The translations under genes and the position numbers were made by a program. A stretch of 64,000 nucleotides of DNA from a phage: the sequence record OZ336095.1, one strand, 5' to 3'. Under the pieces are notes generated by a model. The model was given only the letters and a program-made list of their open reading frames with translations. It was not told the DNA's origin and ran no database searches. Shown one piece after another: positions 4,313 to 58,244 of the stretch. Position 1 is the stretch's first letter. Each line of letters starts with the position of its first letter.

Positions 4313-5413
4313 TTATTCATAATCCCTAATAACTATCCCTACAGGAAACTGTAAAGAACCCTTACGAGTCATCTTCTGGAACTGAACAGTTAAAGGTTTC
4401 CCGATAAACTCTTCAGGATGTTCAGCAAGATACTGTTTCTTCTCATGAGTAGTCTTCCATGAGACATCTACAAAGACATTAGGAAGAGTCTCTACAACGA
4501 ACTTGCCATGACCACGTTTATCGGTCTTTACACCAGTCACTTTAAACTCTTCAGTGTGCATCTTCTTGTGCTTAATCAAGAAGTATGAACGGTGACCACA
4601 CTCGTAGAAAGATTCTTCAGAGATTGAGCGGTACATTGCACCTTCAAACTTAGCTTCAACCCACTTATCATGAGCTTCATCAAACTCTTCCCAAGAATTT
4701 ACACGGATAGTCTGCACAGGAACAACTCTACAGGTATCCCCAAGCTCAACAATGGGTGAGTTATCAATAACTTCACGACGCTCAGGCCAAGATTTTGAAT
4801 TGTCACAGATATCATACCAGTAGAATTTAAGAAGGTGACGGTCTGGATTGTCAGCATTCTTAATCATAGATACAATATCTTCTAAGTCCCAACCATGAGC
4901 ATAAATCTCTCCATCAAAGTCTTCAACTTGCGGGTGTAATTTAAGCAACAAAAGCAAATCTGGGATTAGTTCTGCTGGAACGTTGTAAACAGTATTCTCA
5001 CGAGAATAAGCCGTGAAACTAACTGAATCATCATCTCTTGAAATTCTACAACGTACACCATCCAGTTTTGGTTGAGCATCAGCAGGGAACTTCAGATACT
5101 TTGCGTGACTAACCTTTGCAGCATCATGAGCAAGCTGTACGCCTACCTTCTCAGTATTCTGTGCAGACTCTTTTGTGTAAGCATAACCTTTACGGTCAAC
5201 TTGCTTTTTATACTTAGCAGCAACTTCAAAGAGAGCTTGCTGTTCAGCATTACGCTCATTCTTTTTACCGATGTTCTTAGGCTCTGCTGTGTACTCTTCA
5301 AACATCATCTTGCCATTTTCTTTACCATAGGTTGTGATAACTTTGTCACCTACAGCAACACATGACCAGACGTTGAAGGAACCATCTTTATTTTGTTTGT
5401 ACAGAATTGTCAT
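4313..5413 (-). CDS. ATP-dependent DNA ligase (nucleotidyltransferase superfamily)
   Basis: Motif I KLDGVR, DGEIY, EGAMYR, LIKHKK; start moved to Met 13 with GAGG RBS; about 115 aa N-terminal extension before motif I. Confidence 0.6.
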   Translation of the reverse strand: MTILYKQNKDGSFNVWSCVAVGDKVITTYGKENGKMMFEEYTAEPKNIGKKNERNAEQQALFEVAAKYKKQVDRKGYAYTKESAQNTEKVGVQLAHDAAKVSHAKYLKFPADAQPKLDGVRCRISRDDDSVSFTAYSRENTVYNVPAELIPDLLLLLKLHPQVEDFDGEIYAHGWDLEDIVSMIKNADNPDRHLLKFYWYDICDNSKSWPERREVIDNSPIVELGDTCRVVPVQTIRVNSWEEFDEAHDKWVEAKFEGAMYRSISEESFYECGHRSYFLIKHKKMHTEEFKVTGVKTDKRGHGKFVVETLPNVFVDVSWKTTHEKKQYLAEHPEEFIGKPLTVQFQKMTRKGSLQFPVGIVIRDYE

Positions 5414-5606
5414 TTTTAACCTCTGAGTGATACCAAGTGTTGCAAGCATTACATGCGTAAAGCTCTAAGTCGTTTTTATCTGGTTTATGGAAACAGTTTG
5501 ACCCACAACGACACCGGAATAACTTACCATCAACACGAAGAATGAATGTTTCAAGCTCACCATCTTCTGTAAGAACTGCGTTCTTAAATTTATTATCTTT
5601 ACCCAT
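5388..5606 (-). CDS. Small zinc-ribbon-like protein, 72 aa
   Basis: CRCGSNC...CNACN cysteine pairs. Confidence 0.4.
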   Translation of the reverse strand: MGKDNKFKNAVLTEDGELETFILRVDGKLFRCRCGSNCFHKPDKNDLELYACNACNTWYHSEVKNDNSVQTK

Positions 5607-52712: not shown

Positions 52713-53103
52713 AAAAACCTCTCTCTGCTTGTTCGATTTTTGCTCTTAAAATTTCGCAATGTTGTAAATGGTAGTTAGCTTCTTGTTCATGTGTTGCTAA
52801 CTGCCTTTCAAGAACAGTTTTATAATAACCTGCAAGTTGCTCTTTTGTCAACGGGTGTTCTGAAATAATATCAAGTCCACTTTCGCCAAGAGGGTTGAAT
52901 TGTCCATGCTCATTGACATTGTAAGTCTCAAACTTGAACAGACCATTGTTCACAGACTCAATAGGCGACAGCTCAACAAGCTCTACAGTAAACCGTGTAT
53001 ATACCTTGTCACCTCTTGAAACCACATTGTTTCCGACAATGCGTACAAGCGAGCCATTACGAGTGTACTTAAAAGTTCCAAAGTCACTAGCCCAAAGTTT
53101 CAT
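52705..53103 (-). CDS. Hypothetical protein, 132 aa
   Basis: ORF track. Confidence 0.45.
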   Translation of the reverse strand: MKLWASDFGTFKYTRNGSLVRIVGNNVVSRGDKVYTRFTVELVELSPIESVNNGLFKFETYNVNEHGQFNPLGESGLDIISEHPLTKEQLAGYYKTVLERQLATHEQEANYHLQHCEILRAKIEQAERGFYE

Positions 53104-53121
53104 AGTTTTCTCCTTAGAAAA

Positions 53122-53143
53122 TAAAAAGGCTCCCGAAGGAGCC
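53122..53143 (-). terminator. Rho-independent terminator (minus strand) downstream of lysozyme gene
   Basis: ggctcc-cgaa-ggagcc hairpin with T-run on minus strand. Confidence 0.55.
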
Positions 53144-53153
53144 TATGAAGATA

Positions 53154-53618
53154 TTACTTTGGATATACACTGTCAAGATAAATGTCAGCTTCCATTCTAC
53201 GTCTGTTTTTCAGGCCGTTTGAAGTGACCTTCTTACCTTTTACTGTAACCTTGTTCCACCACTGCATAGCTTCTGCACAACCGACCTTATTACCAGCATT
53301 GTGGCGCTTGATAAATGTAGAGTCCTGCATAGCTGTGATACCAATGTTGTATGTTTCACTTACAAGTGCATCAAACTCATTCTGAGAAGTTGGAACCTTG
53401 ATGGCTTTGTTCACTGCTGTAACGAACTTTTCAACATCTGCAAGAAGATACTGTTCAGCTTGTTCAGCGGTAATCTTCATACCCATCTTAACAGGCTTCC
53501 CACCAATACGAATTGTCCCATACCCAATTGTGGGGATTCCAGCAGAATCTTCGTAAGACTCAAGCTTAAGACCTTCAAAGAACTTAATAGCTTCTAAACC
53601 TTTTCTTGAGAGTTGCAT
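53154..53618 (-). CDS. Lysozyme (GH24, T4 e / lambda R-like endolysin)
   Basis: N-terminal LEAIKFFEGLKLESYEDSAGIPTIGYGT matches the E...D...TIGYG catalytic region; GGGGAGG RBS; 154 aa. Confidence 0.75.
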   Translation of the reverse strand: MQLSRKGLEAIKFFEGLKLESYEDSAGIPTIGYGTIRIGGKPVKMGMKITAEQAEQYLLADVEKFVTAVNKAIKVPTSQNEFDALVSETYNIGITAMQDSTFIKRHNAGNKVGCAEAMQWWNKVTVKGKKVTSNGLKNRRRMEADIYLDSVYPK

Positions 53619-54751
53619 TATGCCTCCCCTGCTGTGTTAACAGTAACTGTTGCTGCATTAGATGTTACAGAGCCACCTGCACCAGTAACTACACAGGTGT
53701 AGCTTCCTGCATCAGCAGCGGTTGCACCTTCTTTGGTGTAAGTTGCAGCAGTTGCGTCTGGGATGACTTCCTCACCTTTCTTCCACTGATAACCTGTTGC
53801 ACCAGTAGCCACAACATTCAGCGTTAAGGTCTCACCTTCAGTGATTTCTTGATTGGTTGGCTGTTGAGTAATTACTGGAAGTGCGTTCACAGTTACTACA
53901 GCAGCATTAGATGTCACTGCACCACCCGCACCTGTTACAACGCAAGTATATGAGCCTGCATCTGCTGGCAGAGCACCAGACTTGCTATAGGTAGCATTTG
54001 TAGCTGAAGGAATGTCAGAGCCATCTTTCTTCCACTGGTAACCTGTCGCACCTGTTGCAGTCACTTCCAAGTTAATGCTTCCACCCTCATTGACAGTCTG
54101 ACCAGAAGGCTGCTGTGTAATCACAGGCAGTGCATTAACAGCAACTGTTGCCGCATCTGAGGTAACACTTGTTCCAGCCTCTCCAGATACAACACAAGTG
54201 TATGAGCCAGCATCAGAAGGTACTACGGACTGTTTTGTATAAGTTGCAGAGGTGGCACTAGGAATATCCTCTCCATCCTTTTTCCATTGATATCCAGTGG
54301 CATTCGTTGCAATAACACTTAGGGTAAGCGTACCACCTTCATTTACTGTTTGATTGGTTGGTTGCTGAGTGATTGCTGGTGGCTTGATAGCATCCTTCAA
54401 CTTAGCATTCAACATTGAGAATGGTTTAACTCTTGCCAGCCATTCACAATAAATTGTGTCAACGTCTTTACCATTGATAATTGCATATTGTAAGTCCATG
54501 AAGAAGTCAGAAGTTCTCATTTGAGCACCAATGCTGTAAAGCAACTCATCACTAAATGGAACTTTGTAGTCTGGTTTGTAGTCAAACTCATCGACTTCTG
54601 CAATATCAGCTTCAGGCCAATACGAACTGTAGGTAAGCGGTAAAATAGCCTCTTGATATGTTCTAAAATCATATCTCTTACCAGCCTTTACGTTTGCAAT
54701 GAAGCCCTTCACAAACTCTTTGAAGTCTGGGTAAGTCTTTGCTTTAATCAT
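53618..54751 (-). CDS. Protein with N-terminal unknown domain and three tandem Ig-like domains
   Basis: Three roughly 85-aa repeats each with YQWKK...SATYT...AGSYTCVV.G; N-terminal 125 aa paralogous to 54748..55119. Confidence 0.6.
   Translation of the reverse strand: MIKAKTYPDFKEFVKGFIANVKAGKRYDFRTYQEAILPLTYSSYWPEADIAEVDEFDYKPDYKVPFSDELLYSIGAQMRTSDFFMDLQYAIINGKDVDTIYCEWLARVKPFSMLNAKLKDAIKPPAITQQPTNQTVNEGGTLTLSVIATNATGYQWKKDGEDIPSATSATYTKQSVVPSDAGSYTCVVSGEAGTSVTSDAATVAVNALPVITQQPSGQTVNEGGSINLEVTATGATGYQWKKDGSDIPSATNATYSKSGALPADAGSYTCVVTGAGGAVTSNAAVVTVNALPVITQQPTNQEITEGETLTLNVVATGATGYQWKKGEEVIPDATAATYTKEGATAADAGSYTCVVTGAGGSVTSNAATVTVNTAGEA
53621..54379. repeat. Three tandem coding repeats of about 250 bp (Ig-like domains)
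   Basis: Direct repeats visible at protein level within 53618..54751. Confidence 0.7.
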
Positions 54752-55119
54752 TTCTTTTTAGCCTCTAAATGTGCGTTTAGTCTAAAATAACCTTTGTGAT
54801 GCGGAGATACGTCACCAACAACAATACCTTTAACCTTATAACCTTTACCAATTACATACTGGATATCCATAAGGAATCTTCCAAGACCAACAATATGGAA
54901 CATTGGATATAATAGATTCTCAGAGTCTGGAATATTGATTTCGGGTTTGTAGGTACGATGTTCGATTGTTGGTGTAATATCTTCTTCAGGCCATTTGCTG
55001 AGTCTCCATGTCAAAGGTGTTGGGATAACATCATTAAGGCTGTACCTTTCACCATTTTGCACGGAATTGACATAGGATTGTAGGAAGCAATAAAAGTCTT
55101 TTGCACTCTTAGCTTTCAT
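54748..55119 (-). CDS. Paralog of the N-terminal domain of the Ig-like protein (no Ig domains)
   Basis: Shared blocks ...GKRY...WPE.DI...YKP...SE.LLY...FMD.QY.I..G with the adjacent gene. Confidence 0.5.
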   Translation of the reverse strand: MKAKSAKDFYCFLQSYVNSVQNGERYSLNDVIPTPLTWRLSKWPEEDITPTIEHRTYKPEINIPDSENLLYPMFHIVGLGRFLMDIQYVIGKGYKVKGIVVGDVSPHHKGYFRLNAHLEAKKK

Positions 55120-55130
55120 TAAATATCCTT

Positions 55131-55158
55131 ATAAATAGTTAAAGGGGCATCAGCCCCT
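55131..55158 (-). terminator. Rho-independent terminator (minus strand)
   Basis: aggggc-atca-gcccct hairpin with T-rich tail on minus strand. Confidence 0.45.
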
Positions 55159-55166
55159 ATTCACAC

Positions 55167-55757
55167 TTAAGCTTTGGTCTTAAGTAGGTTCTTAAGTTTT
55201 TTAAGATTCATACTCTCATCAAACTTAAAACCAAATCCATTGACATAATCAATGAACTCGGATTTCTTACTAAGTGACAATGCGTAACTCATATCGAAGT
55301 TCTTACTTGTTTCTGCGTCTGGACTAGAGTTCACATCAAATGAAATTTCTGTAGGTTCTTGCTTACTTTTTCTCATATTATCAACCAACAAACATGTATA
55401 GTTTGCTGGATAGAAGTTTACACTGCCATCAACGTAGCTGTACTTATTATTATGGATAAGGTTGGAAAATACCTTAAGAAATGTTTCTGAGTCGTGGCAA
55501 ACAAGTTTGAATTGGCTGCTCTCTCCAAGCGCAACTAATGAGTACGGACTTTCACTATCAAAGTCATAATTTGGATTCGATGGCGTCACTGTTACACGCA
55601 TCAAGTTATTAGCAATAGTCTTCTGTTTAAAAGAATTTTGAACATAGTGAAGACCTCTATCAGACTGATTGACTAGCTCTTTAAGTAGGTCATTTGCATA
55701 TGGTGAATTAATTGATACAGAGCCATCACTATTGTAATTAAAACTTACTGTTAACAT
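55167..55757 (-). CDS. Hypothetical protein, 196 aa
   Basis: ORF track. Confidence 0.5.
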   Translation of the reverse strand: MLTVSFNYNSDGSVSINSPYANDLLKELVNQSDRGLHYVQNSFKQKTIANNLMRVTVTPSNPNYDFDSESPYSLVALGESSQFKLVCHDSETFLKVFSNLIHNNKYSYVDGSVNFYPANYTCLLVDNMRKSKQEPTEISFDVNSSPDAETSKNFDMSYALSLSKKSEFIDYVNGFGFKFDESMNLKKLKNLLKTKA

Positions 55758-55984
55758 TTTTCAGTTCTCCTGCGGTTTATAATTTTGCTGCAATAGAGAA
55801 ACGAAGTAAACTCACTGGAAGAAACCATTAAGTGTTGTTCACTAGATTGAGCCATTGCCCTGAAATACATTCCAGTCAAAGCATCATAGTGACTATTCTT
55901 TCCAATTGAGGTTATATAGCCATGACTCTTTGCAGTTTGATATAAATCTATAATATCTGCGATTTCTAATTGGGAACTACACAT
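55751..55984 (-). CDS. Hypothetical protein, 77 aa
   Basis: ORF track. Confidence 0.4.
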   Translation of the reverse strand: MCSSQLEIADIIDLYQTAKSHGYITSIGKNSHYDALTGMYFRAMAQSSEQHLMVSSSEFTSFLYCSKIINRRRTEKC

Positions 55985-56828: not shown

Positions 56829-58244
56829 ATGAGCGAATTATTTAAACATGCGCACCTTCATGCAGGTCGAACTGAAAATGGTGCTGTAAACCATACTTCA
56901 TCAATGTCTGCTCTTGTAGACTTTTACAAAGCTGCTGGTTCAAGCCGTAGCAACGTAGAAATCTTACCAGACCTGTTCTACAAAGCTTTGCGTGAGGATG
57001 TTGATGTTGCAGTTCGTATTTTGCTTCATATGCGAGATGTACGAGAAGGCATGGGTGAGCGTAAAGCCTTCAGAACTGTTTTACTTCAAGCGATTGAAGA
57101 TAAGGTTTTAGAACCTACACAGGTTCTTCGCATTATGGATAAGATTGCAGAGCTTGGTCGTTTTGATGACTTCAAAATCTTCGTAGGTACTCGTTTCGAG
57201 ACAGATGCCTTCAAACATTTAGAAGCAGCATTACTAGACCCTGCAACAGCAGGTTTGGCAGCCAAGTGGCTACCACGAGTCAAACCACGTCATAAGCAGT
57301 TTGTAAAACGTTTCTGCAAGTTTGCCAACTTGAGTGAGAAAGAGTACCGCACACTGTTGTCTGCACTATCTGATACAGTTGAGCAAAAAATCTCTGCTAA
57401 TGAGTTTGGTAAGATTGACTACAGTAAGATTCCTTCACTTGCTGCTGCACGTTACCAAAACCTGTTTAACCGTAAAGATGGAGAGCGTTACAAAGCTTAC
57501 ATCGAGTCCTTATCAAAAGGTGAGACTAAGATTAACGCTGGTGCTGTTTACCCATACGATGTGATTAAATCTATTAAGTATGGTAATGCAGATGTTGCTA
57601 ATGAGCAGTGGAAAGCACTACCAAACTGGATGGCAGAAGGTGAAAACATCTTGTGCATGACTGATGTCTCAAGCTCAATGTCTTGGGTGAATCTTGGTTC
57701 AATCACTGCTCTTGATATTGGTGTATCACTTGCATTGTATGTTGCAGAACGTAATACAGGTTGCTTTAAGAATGAGTTGATGGTTTATTCAACAAACCCT
57801 CACTTCATCGAACTGAGTGGTGATTTACGAAACCGTCATCGTCAGGTGATGCGACACGTTGAATATGGCTCAACTAACTTACAAGCAGCTTTTGACCGTA
57901 TTCTTGAGACAGGTAAAAGAAACAACTTGACTCAGAAAGATATGCCAAGTAAGCTTATCATTTTCTCCGATATGGAGTTTAATCAGGTTGATGGTGCTAA
58001 TGGCCGTACAAACTTCGAAGCAATTCGAGATAAGTACGAAAAAGCTGGATATGAGATGCCACAACTGGTATTCTGGTACTTAGCAAACCGTAATGGTACT
58101 TGCGAAGTGTCTGTTAAGGATAACGGTGTAGCAATGGTATCAGGCTTCTCTCCAGCTACTTTAAAAGCTCTGCTTGGTGGTGAGAAGTTTGACCCAATCA
58201 GCGTAATGCTCAAAGCAGTAATGATTGACCGTTATATCTGGTAA
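56829..58244 (+). CDS. von Willebrand factor A (vWA) domain protein with helical N-terminal region; possibly TROVE/Ro60-like
   Basis: MIDAS-like DVSSSMS motif after a roughly 270-aa helical region; C-terminal LIIFSDMEFN; gene ends about 170 bp before the tRNA cluster. Confidence 0.45.
   Translation: MSELFKHAHLHAGRTENGAVNHTSSMSALVDFYKAAGSSRSNVEILPDLFYKALREDVDVAVRILLHMRDVREGMGERKAFRTVLLQAIEDKVLEPTQVLRIMDKIAELGRFDDFKIFVGTRFETDAFKHLEAALLDPATAGLAAKWLPRVKPRHKQFVKRFCKFANLSEKEYRTLLSALSDTVEQKISANEFGKIDYSKIPSLAAARYQNLFNRKDGERYKAYIESLSKGETKINAGAVYPYDVIKSIKYGNADVANEQWKALPNWMAEGENILCMTDVSSSMSWVNLGSITALDIGVSLALYVAERNTGCFKNELMVYSTNPHFIELSGDLRNRHRQVMRHVEYGSTNLQAAFDRILETGKRNNLTQKDMPSKLIIFSDMEFNQVDGANGRTNFEAIRDKYEKAGYEMPQLVFWYLANRNGTCEVSVKDNGVAMVSGFSPATLKALLGGEKFDPISVMLKAVMIDRYIW

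Follow-up and report, generated by a model that had tools for sequence, protein, structure and literature searches.

Why should a phage keep, beside the gene for an Ig-bearing head decoration protein, a second gene that encodes only the domain by which such a protein binds the capsid? The question is raised by a locus in a stretch of 64,000 nucleotides (sequence record OZ336095.1; hereafter, the window), a Felixounavirus genome whose nucleotides are 98% identical to those of fjerdesal, Tribble, and wV8; judged by its sequence, the source is a Felix O1-like myophage. Three abutting genes lie on the minus strand, in the transcription order capsid-binding domain (CapBD)-only paralogue (123 aa, positions 54748 to 55119), Hex-Dec (377 aa, 53618 to 54751), and GH24-type endolysin (154 aa, 53154 to 53618). 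The stop codon of the paralogue overlaps the start codon of Hex-Dec in the sequence ATGA, an overlap present in 8 of the 10 genomes checked, and the Hex-Dec stop codon and the endolysin start codon have one base in common. The endolysin matched PF00959 (137.9 bits, with a gathering cut-off of 22.3; E = 2.8e−40) as well as phrog_7 endolysin, which bears out an earlier note on this DNA that had placed a GH24 lysozyme directly downstream of both other genes.

The three-gene unit is flanked on both sides by hairpins, annotated as terminators in wV8. Between a 196-aa gene and the paralogue lies a GC hairpin, GGGGCTGATGCCCC (55144 to 55157, minus strand), which is a rho-independent terminator according to wV8, is kept in REP9 and Sf14, and is followed by an AAGGA ribosome-binding site (55126 to 55130) ahead of the paralogue. 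With its weak T tract, it was missed by a consensus terminator scan. Directly 3′ of the endolysin gene, a terminator-like hairpin with a T run (53127 to 53144, minus strand) corresponds to an annotated terminator in wV8 and Tribble. The T4-type late promoter TATAAATA had 3 matches in the window versus 4 expected, and the minus strand close to the unit had none; a scan for sigma-70-like sites as promoter of the unit showed no enrichment. Neither scan led to the assignment of a promoter.

Identity of the 377-aa protein

The 377-aa protein was identified as Hex-Dec by phmmer searches of the PDB, by its match to phrog_3995 (E = 1e−207), and by synteny with annotated genomes. The PDB matches were 9ncf_S (E = 5.6e−294; residues 1 to 362 plus a repeat) and 9c2d_S (E = 5.2e−169; residues 1 to 371), which are the orthologues of Bas63 (Escherichia phage JohannRWettstein; bas63_0124, 93 to 98% identical) and of Shigella phage Sf14 (Mooglevirus; gp20, also 9C3A chain S, about 70 to 87% identical). 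Further equivalents are wV8 gp41 and Felix O1 ORF36 (NP_944848).

Cryo-EM and mass spectrometry (MS) of the orthologues describe a monomeric decoration of a T=9 head, with a CapBD that plugs the centres of the 60 pentamer-proximal hexamers. In the structures solved on the capsid, the N-terminal 118 to 122 residues form this domain, a pseudo-two-fold, two-lobed unit of ~120 aa, and the Ig string points outward (9NCF_S, 9C2D_S; PMC12609058, PMC11821841). In Sf14, Arg79 and Arg107 form salt bridges to Asp221 of the capsid protein, and gp20 is shut out of the true three-fold hexamers, where the geometry of Asp221 differs (PMC11821841). Both arginines are retained in the Hex-Dec of the window, according to its alignment to 9c2d_S and 9ncf_S, and they are invariant in all 7 Hex-Dec orthologues compared. 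The same alignment delimits the CapBD of the window to residues 1 to 122 (54386 to 54751, minus strand); residues 1 to 123 had no Pfam match. The CapBD has an omega of 0.03 to 0.05, and the lysin one of 0.03 to 0.12. Given its 93 to 98% identity to orthologues, the Hex-Dec of this phage probably occupies the centres of pentamer-proximal hexamers as well.

Orthologues were also detected in virions by MS, both Felix O1 gp36, the product of ORF36 (score 813, 14 peptides, coverage 44%), and Sf14 gp20 (PMC11821841). The earlier note had proposed a surface decoration or adhesion protein whose N-terminal domain has a function of its own, to be doubted if the protein were absent from virions and its Ig-like repeats unfolded. 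The orthologues are present in virions and on the capsid (9NCF, 9C2D), the repeats are modelled as folded, and the function of the domain, shown in the solved orthologues, is capsid binding; the decoration itself was already published in 2025. Hex-Dec is thus a known protein, solved twice in that year, to which the window adds just another three-Ig allele. We are confident of the overall assignment, in which the 377-aa protein is Hex-Dec, a Hoc-like head decoration, and its 123-aa neighbour a genuine, selected duplicate of the CapBD.

That the protein belongs instead to the tail is scarcely credible, even if dozens of records, from most Felixounavirus genomes, call it “tail protein” or “putative tail protein,” phrog_3995 carries the label tail, the 2010 Felix O1 paper names a “major tail protein,” and Ig-bearing major tail proteins such as phrog_158 occur among its secondary PHROG matches. 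Two independent cryo-EM studies found the orthologue in the hexamer centres of the capsid (PMC12609058, PMC11821841), one of them explicitly calling the tail annotation wrong, and the PHROG tail and Hoc matches other than phrog_3995 are confined to the Ig region (residues about 96 to 306). A tail identity had already been refuted by PDB entries 9NCF and 9C2D. The widespread label, which includes PHROG 3995 and UniRef names that have passed to the paralogue as well, is an error and ought to be replaced by “head decoration.”

Ig-like repeats and comparison with other decoration proteins

The CapBD is followed by three Ig-like (I-set) repeats of 83 aa, pairwise 71 to 72% identical in protein sequence, all on the minus strand: residues 124 to 206 (54134 to 54382), 207 to 289 (53885 to 54133), and 290 to 372 (53636 to 53884). 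Pfam matches to Ig_3 (E = 7.7e−33), Ig_2 (E = 2.1e−27), and I-set (E = 3e−26) fell in three stretches over residues about 124 to 371, with the best stretch of Ig_3 at residues 124 to 189, I-set at 209 to 285, and Ig_2 at 292 to 371. AlphaFold2 modelled the repeats as beta-sandwiches (pLDDT 95 to 97, and 96 to 97 in the first; mean of the whole protein, 90), and Foldseek matched them to the I-set strings of titin and Robo. The architecture first read from the sequence, an N-terminal domain plus three tandem Ig-like repeats, is thus confirmed. Tandem Repeats Finder called no array between 53500 and 55200, because the repeats are only ~65% identical in nucleotides; with such divergence in DNA, the claim of a repeat rests on protein evidence.

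A repeat number of 1 to 4 across the genus has already been described (PMC12609058). The Bas63 protein, encoded like that of the window between a 123-aa paralogue and the endolysin, is near-identical in CapBD and Ig repeats but has four of the latter (460 aa) where the window has three. Sf14 gp20, with the paralogue FDI99_gp021 upstream as in the window, also has three Ig domains (372 aa) and conserves Arg79 and Arg107, but it comes from a different genus and is 87% identical in the CapBD and 62% in Ig1.

The three I-set domains are predicted to form a flexible outward fibre, which, by analogy with proposals for T4 Hoc, may act in adhesion or aggregation or may sense the environment; the structural papers call the function of the fibre unknown or argue it from the analogy with Hoc (PMC12609058, PMC11821841). 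Like Hex-Dec, Hoc binds hexamer centres as a monomer, through a small capsid-binding domain, and projects an Ig-like string outward; it is dispensable, with a proposed role in adhesion or aggregation (PMC12609058, PMC11821841). Nevertheless, Hoc occupies all hexamers, whereas Hex-Dec occupies only the 60 pentamer-proximal ones, and the capsid-binding domain of Hoc is C-terminal, with a distinct topology and minimal sequence similarity, while that of Hex-Dec is N-terminal, in reversed domain order (PMC12609058). A Hoc-type C-terminal capsid-binding domain was not found in the 377-aa protein, whose “Hoc-like” matches (phrog_2973 and phrog_4069) cover residues 121 to 306 only. Hex-Dec and T4 Hoc do not belong to the same family. 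The Ig domain of T5 pb10 (5lxk_A) also matched Hex-Dec in sequence (E = 4e−12), over query residues 133 to 210 only; pb10 has one Ig domain, and no similarity of its capsid-binding domain to Hex-Dec was detected.

A selected copy of the capsid-binding domain

The 123-aa protein is 36% identical to Hex-Dec over 101 residues (BLASTP; E = 1e−16), and its residues 2 to 117 matched 9ncf_S (E = 1.9e−11) and 9c2d_S (E = 2.9e−11) in phmmer searches. The multiple alignment of the two families spans the whole 120-aa CapBD, with 29 columns invariant between them, in agreement with the earlier description of this gene as a paralog of the N-terminal domain only. The protein ends at residue 123, with no Ig-like domain and no Pfam match, and the 51 relatives that we found are all 88 to 124 aa long. 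Structure prediction, suggested in the same note for the shared domain, helped in part: Foldseek returned 9c2d_S and 9ncf_S as top matches, but the AlphaFold2 model of the paralogue was poor (pLDDT 56) and the TM value was about 0.46. Taken together, the alignments show true paralogy across the entire CapBD, the 123-aa protein being an old tandem duplicate of this domain alone.

The paralogue matched phrog_4463 (E = 7e−79), a family of function unknown, and its equivalents are wV8 gp42, Felix O1 ORF37 (NP_944851), Bas63 bas63_0125, Sf14 FDI99_gp021, and VpaE1 ORF40c. Word-index homologue searches returned close relatives only; an exhaustive profile search of 1.84 billion proteins yielded just 12 representatives, which shows how tiny the family is. 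Of 253 records, 234 have an intact frame of 122 to 124 aa, and the gene is kept in four lineages (Felixounavirus, Mooglevirus, Suspvirus, and one divergent metagenomic phage) down to 46% identity. The order paralogue, Hex-Dec, and lysozyme likewise recurs in Sf14, Moogle, SUSP2, and Bas63, as well as in a metagenomic contig of 87 kb, the paralogue of the last being only 46% identical. With a dN/dS of 0.09 to 0.26 at unsaturated dS, the coding sequence shows the signature of a real gene under purifying selection, with a rate of evolution about double that of the CapBD of Hex-Dec.

The paralogues differ from Hex-Dec at both positions of the known capsid contacts. Position 79 is an invariant glycine, part of a GLG motif, where Hex-Dec has Arg79, and position 107 is histidine (lysine in the metagenomic relative P0099), where Hex-Dec has Arg107. 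Other invariant residues, such as those of a KGY motif, are also specific to the paralogues. A contrast between a basic paralogue and an acidic CapBD, suggested by their pI in the window (9.1 versus 5.0), was dropped, as the pI of the paralogue ranges from 5.2 to 9.1 across lineages.

History of the duplication

The paralogue and Hex-Dec clades were each monophyletic in 100 of 100 bootstraps. Within one genome, the two proteins are 31 to 38% identical in every lineage, which argues that there was no recent gene conversion. Bootstrap values were 63% for Hex-Dec with Kolesnikvirus, 28% for the paralogue with Kolesnikvirus, and 9% for the paralogue with Hex-Dec. The Kolesnikvirus protein (gp038 of Erwinia phages phiEa21-4 and phiEa104, labelled “tail protein”) has a homologous CapBD (35 to 38% identity) and a gene that adjoins the endolysin, but is only about 205 aa long and carries a single Big_2-type Ig domain. 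A CapBD-only paralogue was not found in these genomes, which gave one match per record, and the upstream gene abuts gp038.

Every single-copy CapBD relative that we found has a C-terminal appendage, either a Big_2-type Ig domain, an I-set domain, or a disordered K/S-rich tail; therefore, truncation of a duplicate could account equally well for the 123-aa form without Ig domains. The earlier view that one copy had acquired Ig modules holds only loosely, since all single-copy relatives found carry an appendage, and the tree gives no strong support to any order of events. In one distant relative (P0105), the only CapBD gene encodes no Ig domain.

Candidate roles of the paralogue

RT-PCR of Felix O1 placed the peak of ORF36 and that of ORF37 at 60 min, showing that the paralogue is transcribed late, together with Hex-Dec. 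The protein is absent from the published list of Felix O1 virion proteins (17 proteins, with coverage of at least 25%) and, judging from the text of the VpaE1 paper, ORF40c is not flagged as structural in that virion proteome; proteins of 9.7 to 13.7 kDa were detected in the Felix O1 and VpaE1 analyses. Bas63 and Sf14 encode the paralogue, but neither cryo-EM paper mentions it in its main text (PMC12609058, PMC11821841), nor do the Sf14 supplements searched; the Sf14 MS table covers only proteins with assigned structural roles. No density was reported for Bas63 and Sf14 on hexamers other than the pentamer-proximal ones (PMC12609058), although symmetry averaging would smear out a monomer of 13 kDa at the hexamers on the icosahedral three-fold axes. 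Our literature search for the paralogue found nothing. In Bas63, Sf14, and Felix O1 alike, a copy of the CapBD that lacks a display module is thus conserved, under selection, and expressed late, and the structural papers are silent on it.

The paralogue is most likely an accessory protein, transient, low in copy number, or outside the virion. This non-stoichiometric reading follows from the loss of both anchoring arginines, the lack of any report of the protein in virion proteomes or cryo-EM maps, and its dispensability in one natural clade; the evidence against a stable virion protein is all negative, and since published descriptions name no contacts besides Arg79 and Arg107, others may be conserved in the paralogue. 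As a tentative proposal, which taken as a whole falls somewhat short of probable, the paralogue would still recognise the capsid or hexamer surface, but in few copies or in passing, with procapsids or sites left unfilled by Hex-Dec as possible targets. Alternatively, it might assist the attachment of Hex-Dec, again not as a stoichiometric component of the virion.

A stable second decoration of hexamer centres, an Ig-less plug that is either mixed with Hex-Dec or sits on hexamers without Hex-Dec, such as the 20 true three-fold ones, seems to us rather unlikely, but has several points in its favour. The whole two-lobed CapBD is kept, with its 29 invariant columns; the paralogue and Hex-Dec genes are expressed late, together, and the stop codon of the first overlaps the start codon of the second. 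Moreover, the Asp221 geometry bars Hex-Dec from three-fold hexamers, and the paralogue differs exactly at both Asp-binding positions, while P0105, with a CapBD and no Ig domain, suggests that a bare plug can be a functional form. However, neither cryo-EM paper reports density on other hexamers, though both phages encode the paralogue; the protein is missing from the Felix O1 virion proteome and, on the text of the paper, from that of VpaE1, despite the small proteins detected in both; and the gene was lost in one clade.

More doubtful is a role of the paralogue as a factor dedicated to the patterning or assembly of the head decoration, setting where and when the Hoc-like fibre attaches. It would then either compete with Hex-Dec or sit transiently at hexamer centres, for example those of procapsids or of the 20 three-fold hexamers. 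No regulatory role for a duplicate of a decoration protein was found in the literature searched.

We consider it improbable that the paralogue is a functionless leftover of the duplication, drifting to loss. The gene is indeed deleted in REP9, SP116, and fBSPA4, which have one decayed remnant in common (a clade of about 19 of 253 records), the CapBD evolves at only about half its rate, and the known contact arginines are gone. Against this stand the omega of 0.09 to 0.26 at unsaturated dS, the intact frame at a constant length in 234 records and in four lineages of down to 46% identity, the invariant residues peculiar to the paralogues (GLG and KGY), and the conserved overlap with the Hex-Dec start codon.

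Ig domains are often joined to phage structural proteins by a programmed −1 frameshift. Such a fusion of the paralogue with Hex-Dec, giving a Hex-Dec with two CapBDs, is extremely improbable here: the paralogue ends in GCT AAA AAG AAA TGA, with a dnaX-like AAA AAG and Hex-Dec in the −1 frame, but the heptamer T AAA AAG has the wrong first base, Hex-Dec has its own ATG, the modelled chains begin at its residue 1, and no paralogue peptides are reported in virions. We rejected it because the slippery-like AAA AAG is not conserved, being GAA AAG in wV8 and AAG AAA in Sf14 and Moogle, and SUSP2 differs in both overlap and frame.

Hex-Dec is a candidate display scaffold, and a competitor or gate at its binding site would matter for the engineering of phage display on Felix O1-like therapeutic phages. 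The SP116/REP9 clade represents a set of natural deletion mutants of the paralogue.

A capsid decoration gene and its paralogue next to the endolysin

Three minus-strand genes abut in the ORF listing: a 123-aa ORF (54748-55119, the paralogue), a 377-aa ORF (53618-54751, Hex-Dec) and a 154-aa lysozyme/endolysin ORF (53154-53618; PF00959 Phage_lysozyme, E 2.8e-40 in Pfam). The paralogue is preceded by a hairpin, annotated as a terminator in wV8, and then by an AAGGA ribosome-binding site; a terminator-like hairpin directly follows the lysin gene. The interval 53100-55800 matched 239 phage records by megablast, the best (98% identity) being Escherichia phages fjerdesal, Tribble, dune and wV8, and by its sequence the genome is a Felixounavirus, a Felix O1-like myophage. 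The equivalents of Hex-Dec are wV8 gp41, Felix O1 ORF36 (NP_944848), Bas63 bas63_0124, Sf14 gp20 and VpaE1 ORF39c, and those of the paralogue are wV8 gp42, Felix O1 ORF37 (NP_944851), Bas63 bas63_0125, Sf14 FDI99_gp021 and VpaE1 ORF40c.

Pfam identified three immunoglobulin stretches at residues ~124-371 of Hex-Dec (Ig_3, E 7.7e-33; I-set, E 3e-26), corresponding to three 83-aa repeats with 71-72% pairwise identity, and matched no family in residues 1-123 or in the paralogue. The latter is 36% identical to Hex-Dec over 101 residues (BLASTP, E 1e-16), and the similarity spans the full 120-aa domain, with 29 invariant columns in a 19-sequence alignment. The ORF, Pfam, repeat, BLASTP and alignment results therefore bear out in every particular the observation of the earlier note, namely a protein with three Ig-like repeats, a shorter copy of its N-terminal domain and a lysozyme downstream of both. 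The Ig domains are predicted to be folded (AlphaFold2 pLDDT 95-97; mean of 90 for the protein), and I-set strings of titin and Robo match the model.

The surface decoration role proposed in that note is supported by solved orthologues and was already published in 2025. A PDB search matched Hex-Dec from residue 1 to chain S of 9NCF, the Bas63 capsid reconstruction ("Immunoglobulin-like domain protein," E 5.6e-294), and to chain S of 9C2D/9C3A, the Sf14 capsid reconstruction ("Tail protein," E 5.2e-169). Hex-Dec itself is already known, with the gene carried by >230 sequenced phages and structures available for two close orthologues. It is a monomer whose capsid-binding domain (CapBD), the N-terminal 118-122 residues, forms two pseudo-two-fold lobes seated in hexamer centres, only at those 60 hexamers of the T=9 shell that are proximal to pentamers, and is followed by 1-4 Ig-like domains unresolved in the maps; the architecture resembles that of T4 Hoc, but the topology is distinct and the domain order reversed (PMC12609058, PMC11821841). 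Arg79 and Arg107 of Sf14 gp20 form salt bridges with Asp221 of the capsid protein (PMC11821841), and alignment to the PDB chains showed that both arginines are kept in the window. Orthologues were detected in virions by mass spectrometry in Felix O1 (gp36, 14 peptides, 44% coverage) and in Sf14 (PMC11821841). Together with the predicted Ig folds, this contradicts both outcomes that the earlier note named as refuting, a protein missing from virions and unfolded repeats. Very probably, the N-terminal plug would use Arg79 and Arg107 to enter pentamer-proximal hexamers at their acidic centre, leaving the three Ig domains as a flexible fibre outside the capsid. By analogy with Hoc, this fibre may act in adhesion or aggregation. 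The usual annotation of the 377-aa product as a tail protein is almost certainly wrong, and is called an error in the Bas63 paper (PMC12609058).

The two lobes may retain a faint sequence trace of internal duplication (54386-54751 and 54748-55119, minus strand): in a comparison of N-half and C-half profiles, 22 columns aligned (hhalign P = 0.0046, probability of only 7.6%), with motifs of helix, Gly and strand (DFxxF...G versus FLMDxQY...G).

Age and spread of the paralogue

Intact copies of the paralogue (tblastn identity of at least 60%) were found in 234 of 253 matching phage records, spanning Felixounavirus, Mooglevirus and Suspvirus. An 87-kb metagenomic contig keeps the gene order (195-aa gene, paralogue of 122 aa, Hex-Dec of 298 aa, lysozyme) with a paralogue of only 46% identity. 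The paralogue and Hex-Dec clades are both monophyletic (100/100 bootstraps each), and identity between the two within a genome is 31-38% everywhere, implying no recent gene conversion. These comparisons indicate that the paralogue is old and syntenic. Its family is tiny, with only 12 members among 1.84 billion representative proteins in a profile search. In Felix O1 the gene is transcribed late, ORF36 and ORF37 sharing an RT-PCR class that peaks at 60 min along with portal, baseplate and fibre genes. We found no discussion of the CapBD paralogy in the searchable literature; UniRef names the paralogue "Tail protein," so databases recognise the relationship implicitly.

The record GU169904.1 ("Staphylococcus phage SA1," 147 kb) carries Hex-Dec and, at 143190-143558, a paralogue copy 97.6% identical to that of the window. 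This looks like a Felixounavirus segment in a chimeric or contaminated assembly.

Possible roles of the paralogue

We tentatively favour a capsid- or hexamer-recognising accessory, produced alongside Hex-Dec, that would act only briefly, in few copies or away from the virion, and would be useful yet dispensable. That it is a stable plug without Ig domains on the three-fold hexamers seems rather unlikely. The evidence against such a plug is negative or indirect, and a monomer present in few copies on the icosahedral three-fold axes might be missed. Position 79 of the paralogue is an invariant Gly (GLG motif) and position 107 a His (Lys in the metagenomic P0099), where Hex-Dec orthologues have Arg. 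Moreover, cryo-EM shows no density on the remaining hexamers of Bas63 or Sf14 (PMC12609058, PMC11821841); both phages encode the paralogue, which is unmentioned in the main texts of these papers and in the accessible Sf14 supplements. Felix O1 gp37 is absent from the whole-virion shotgun list, although proteins of 9.7-13.7 kDa are listed. In the accessible part of the VpaE1 source, 19 of 22 virion proteins have counterparts in that list (the exceptions being gp54, gp58 and gp68), and ORF40c remains annotated "hypothetical."

The gene has also been lost in a viable clade of ~19 records. Of these, REP9, SP116 and fBSPA4, isolated in the USA, China and India, have in common one identical decayed remnant with a ~220-nt internal deletion, a lost ATG and frameshifts. 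This 192-bp intergenic remnant (2806-2997 in the REP9 locus; 1006-1197 in those of SP116 and fBSPA4) retains ~65 nt from the start of the gene and ~85 nt from its end. It is 97% identical among the three phages, which come from three continents, and this identity points to a single ancestral deletion. These phages are natural paralogue knockouts and ready-made controls for its function. The puzzle that is left is modest but could be tested cleanly with the maps and spectra already available and with such natural deletions.

That intact copies are a drifting remnant is improbable. Pairwise Nei-Gojobori dN/dS, where dS was unsaturated, was 0.09-0.26 for the paralogue, against 0.03-0.05 in the CapBD of Hex-Dec and 0.03-0.12 in the lysin gene, with a paralogue dN about twice that of the CapBD; by this measure the paralogue is a genuine gene on which selection acts. 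The paralogue stop codon and the start codon of Hex-Dec overlap, as ATGA in 8 of 10 genomes compared, and fusion of the two ORFs by frameshift is highly improbable, since AAA AAG, a slippery-like site, lacks conservation.

Distant relatives and gene neighbourhood

More distant relatives have one CapBD gene each, adjoining the lysozyme, with differing appendages: a Big_2-type Ig domain in Kolesnikvirus, P0102 and P0104, an I-set domain in P0103, and no Ig domain in P0105 (153 aa; 5001-5462 of metagenomic contig SRR33913825_5192), which ends in a ~30-residue disordered K/S/E-rich tail. The capsid plug has therefore stayed constant while the display module attached to it was repeatedly exchanged. 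The endolysin is always directly downstream of the head decoration gene in each lineage compared (53154-55119, minus strand, in the window; L005, L006 and the same contig), even where CapBD identity drops to 28-38%. In Bas63 the decoration gene lies >10 kb from the structural module (PMC12609058). A divergent DUF5681 and DUF2828 pair faces the unit of 62-aa, ~190-aa, CapBD and lysozyme genes, and is kept even in distant metagenomic relatives (that contig and L018). The 471-aa DUF2828 "RNA-binding protein" (wV8 gp47; 56829-58244, plus strand) adjoins a downstream array of 26 tRNA genes (58411-63556, plus strand).
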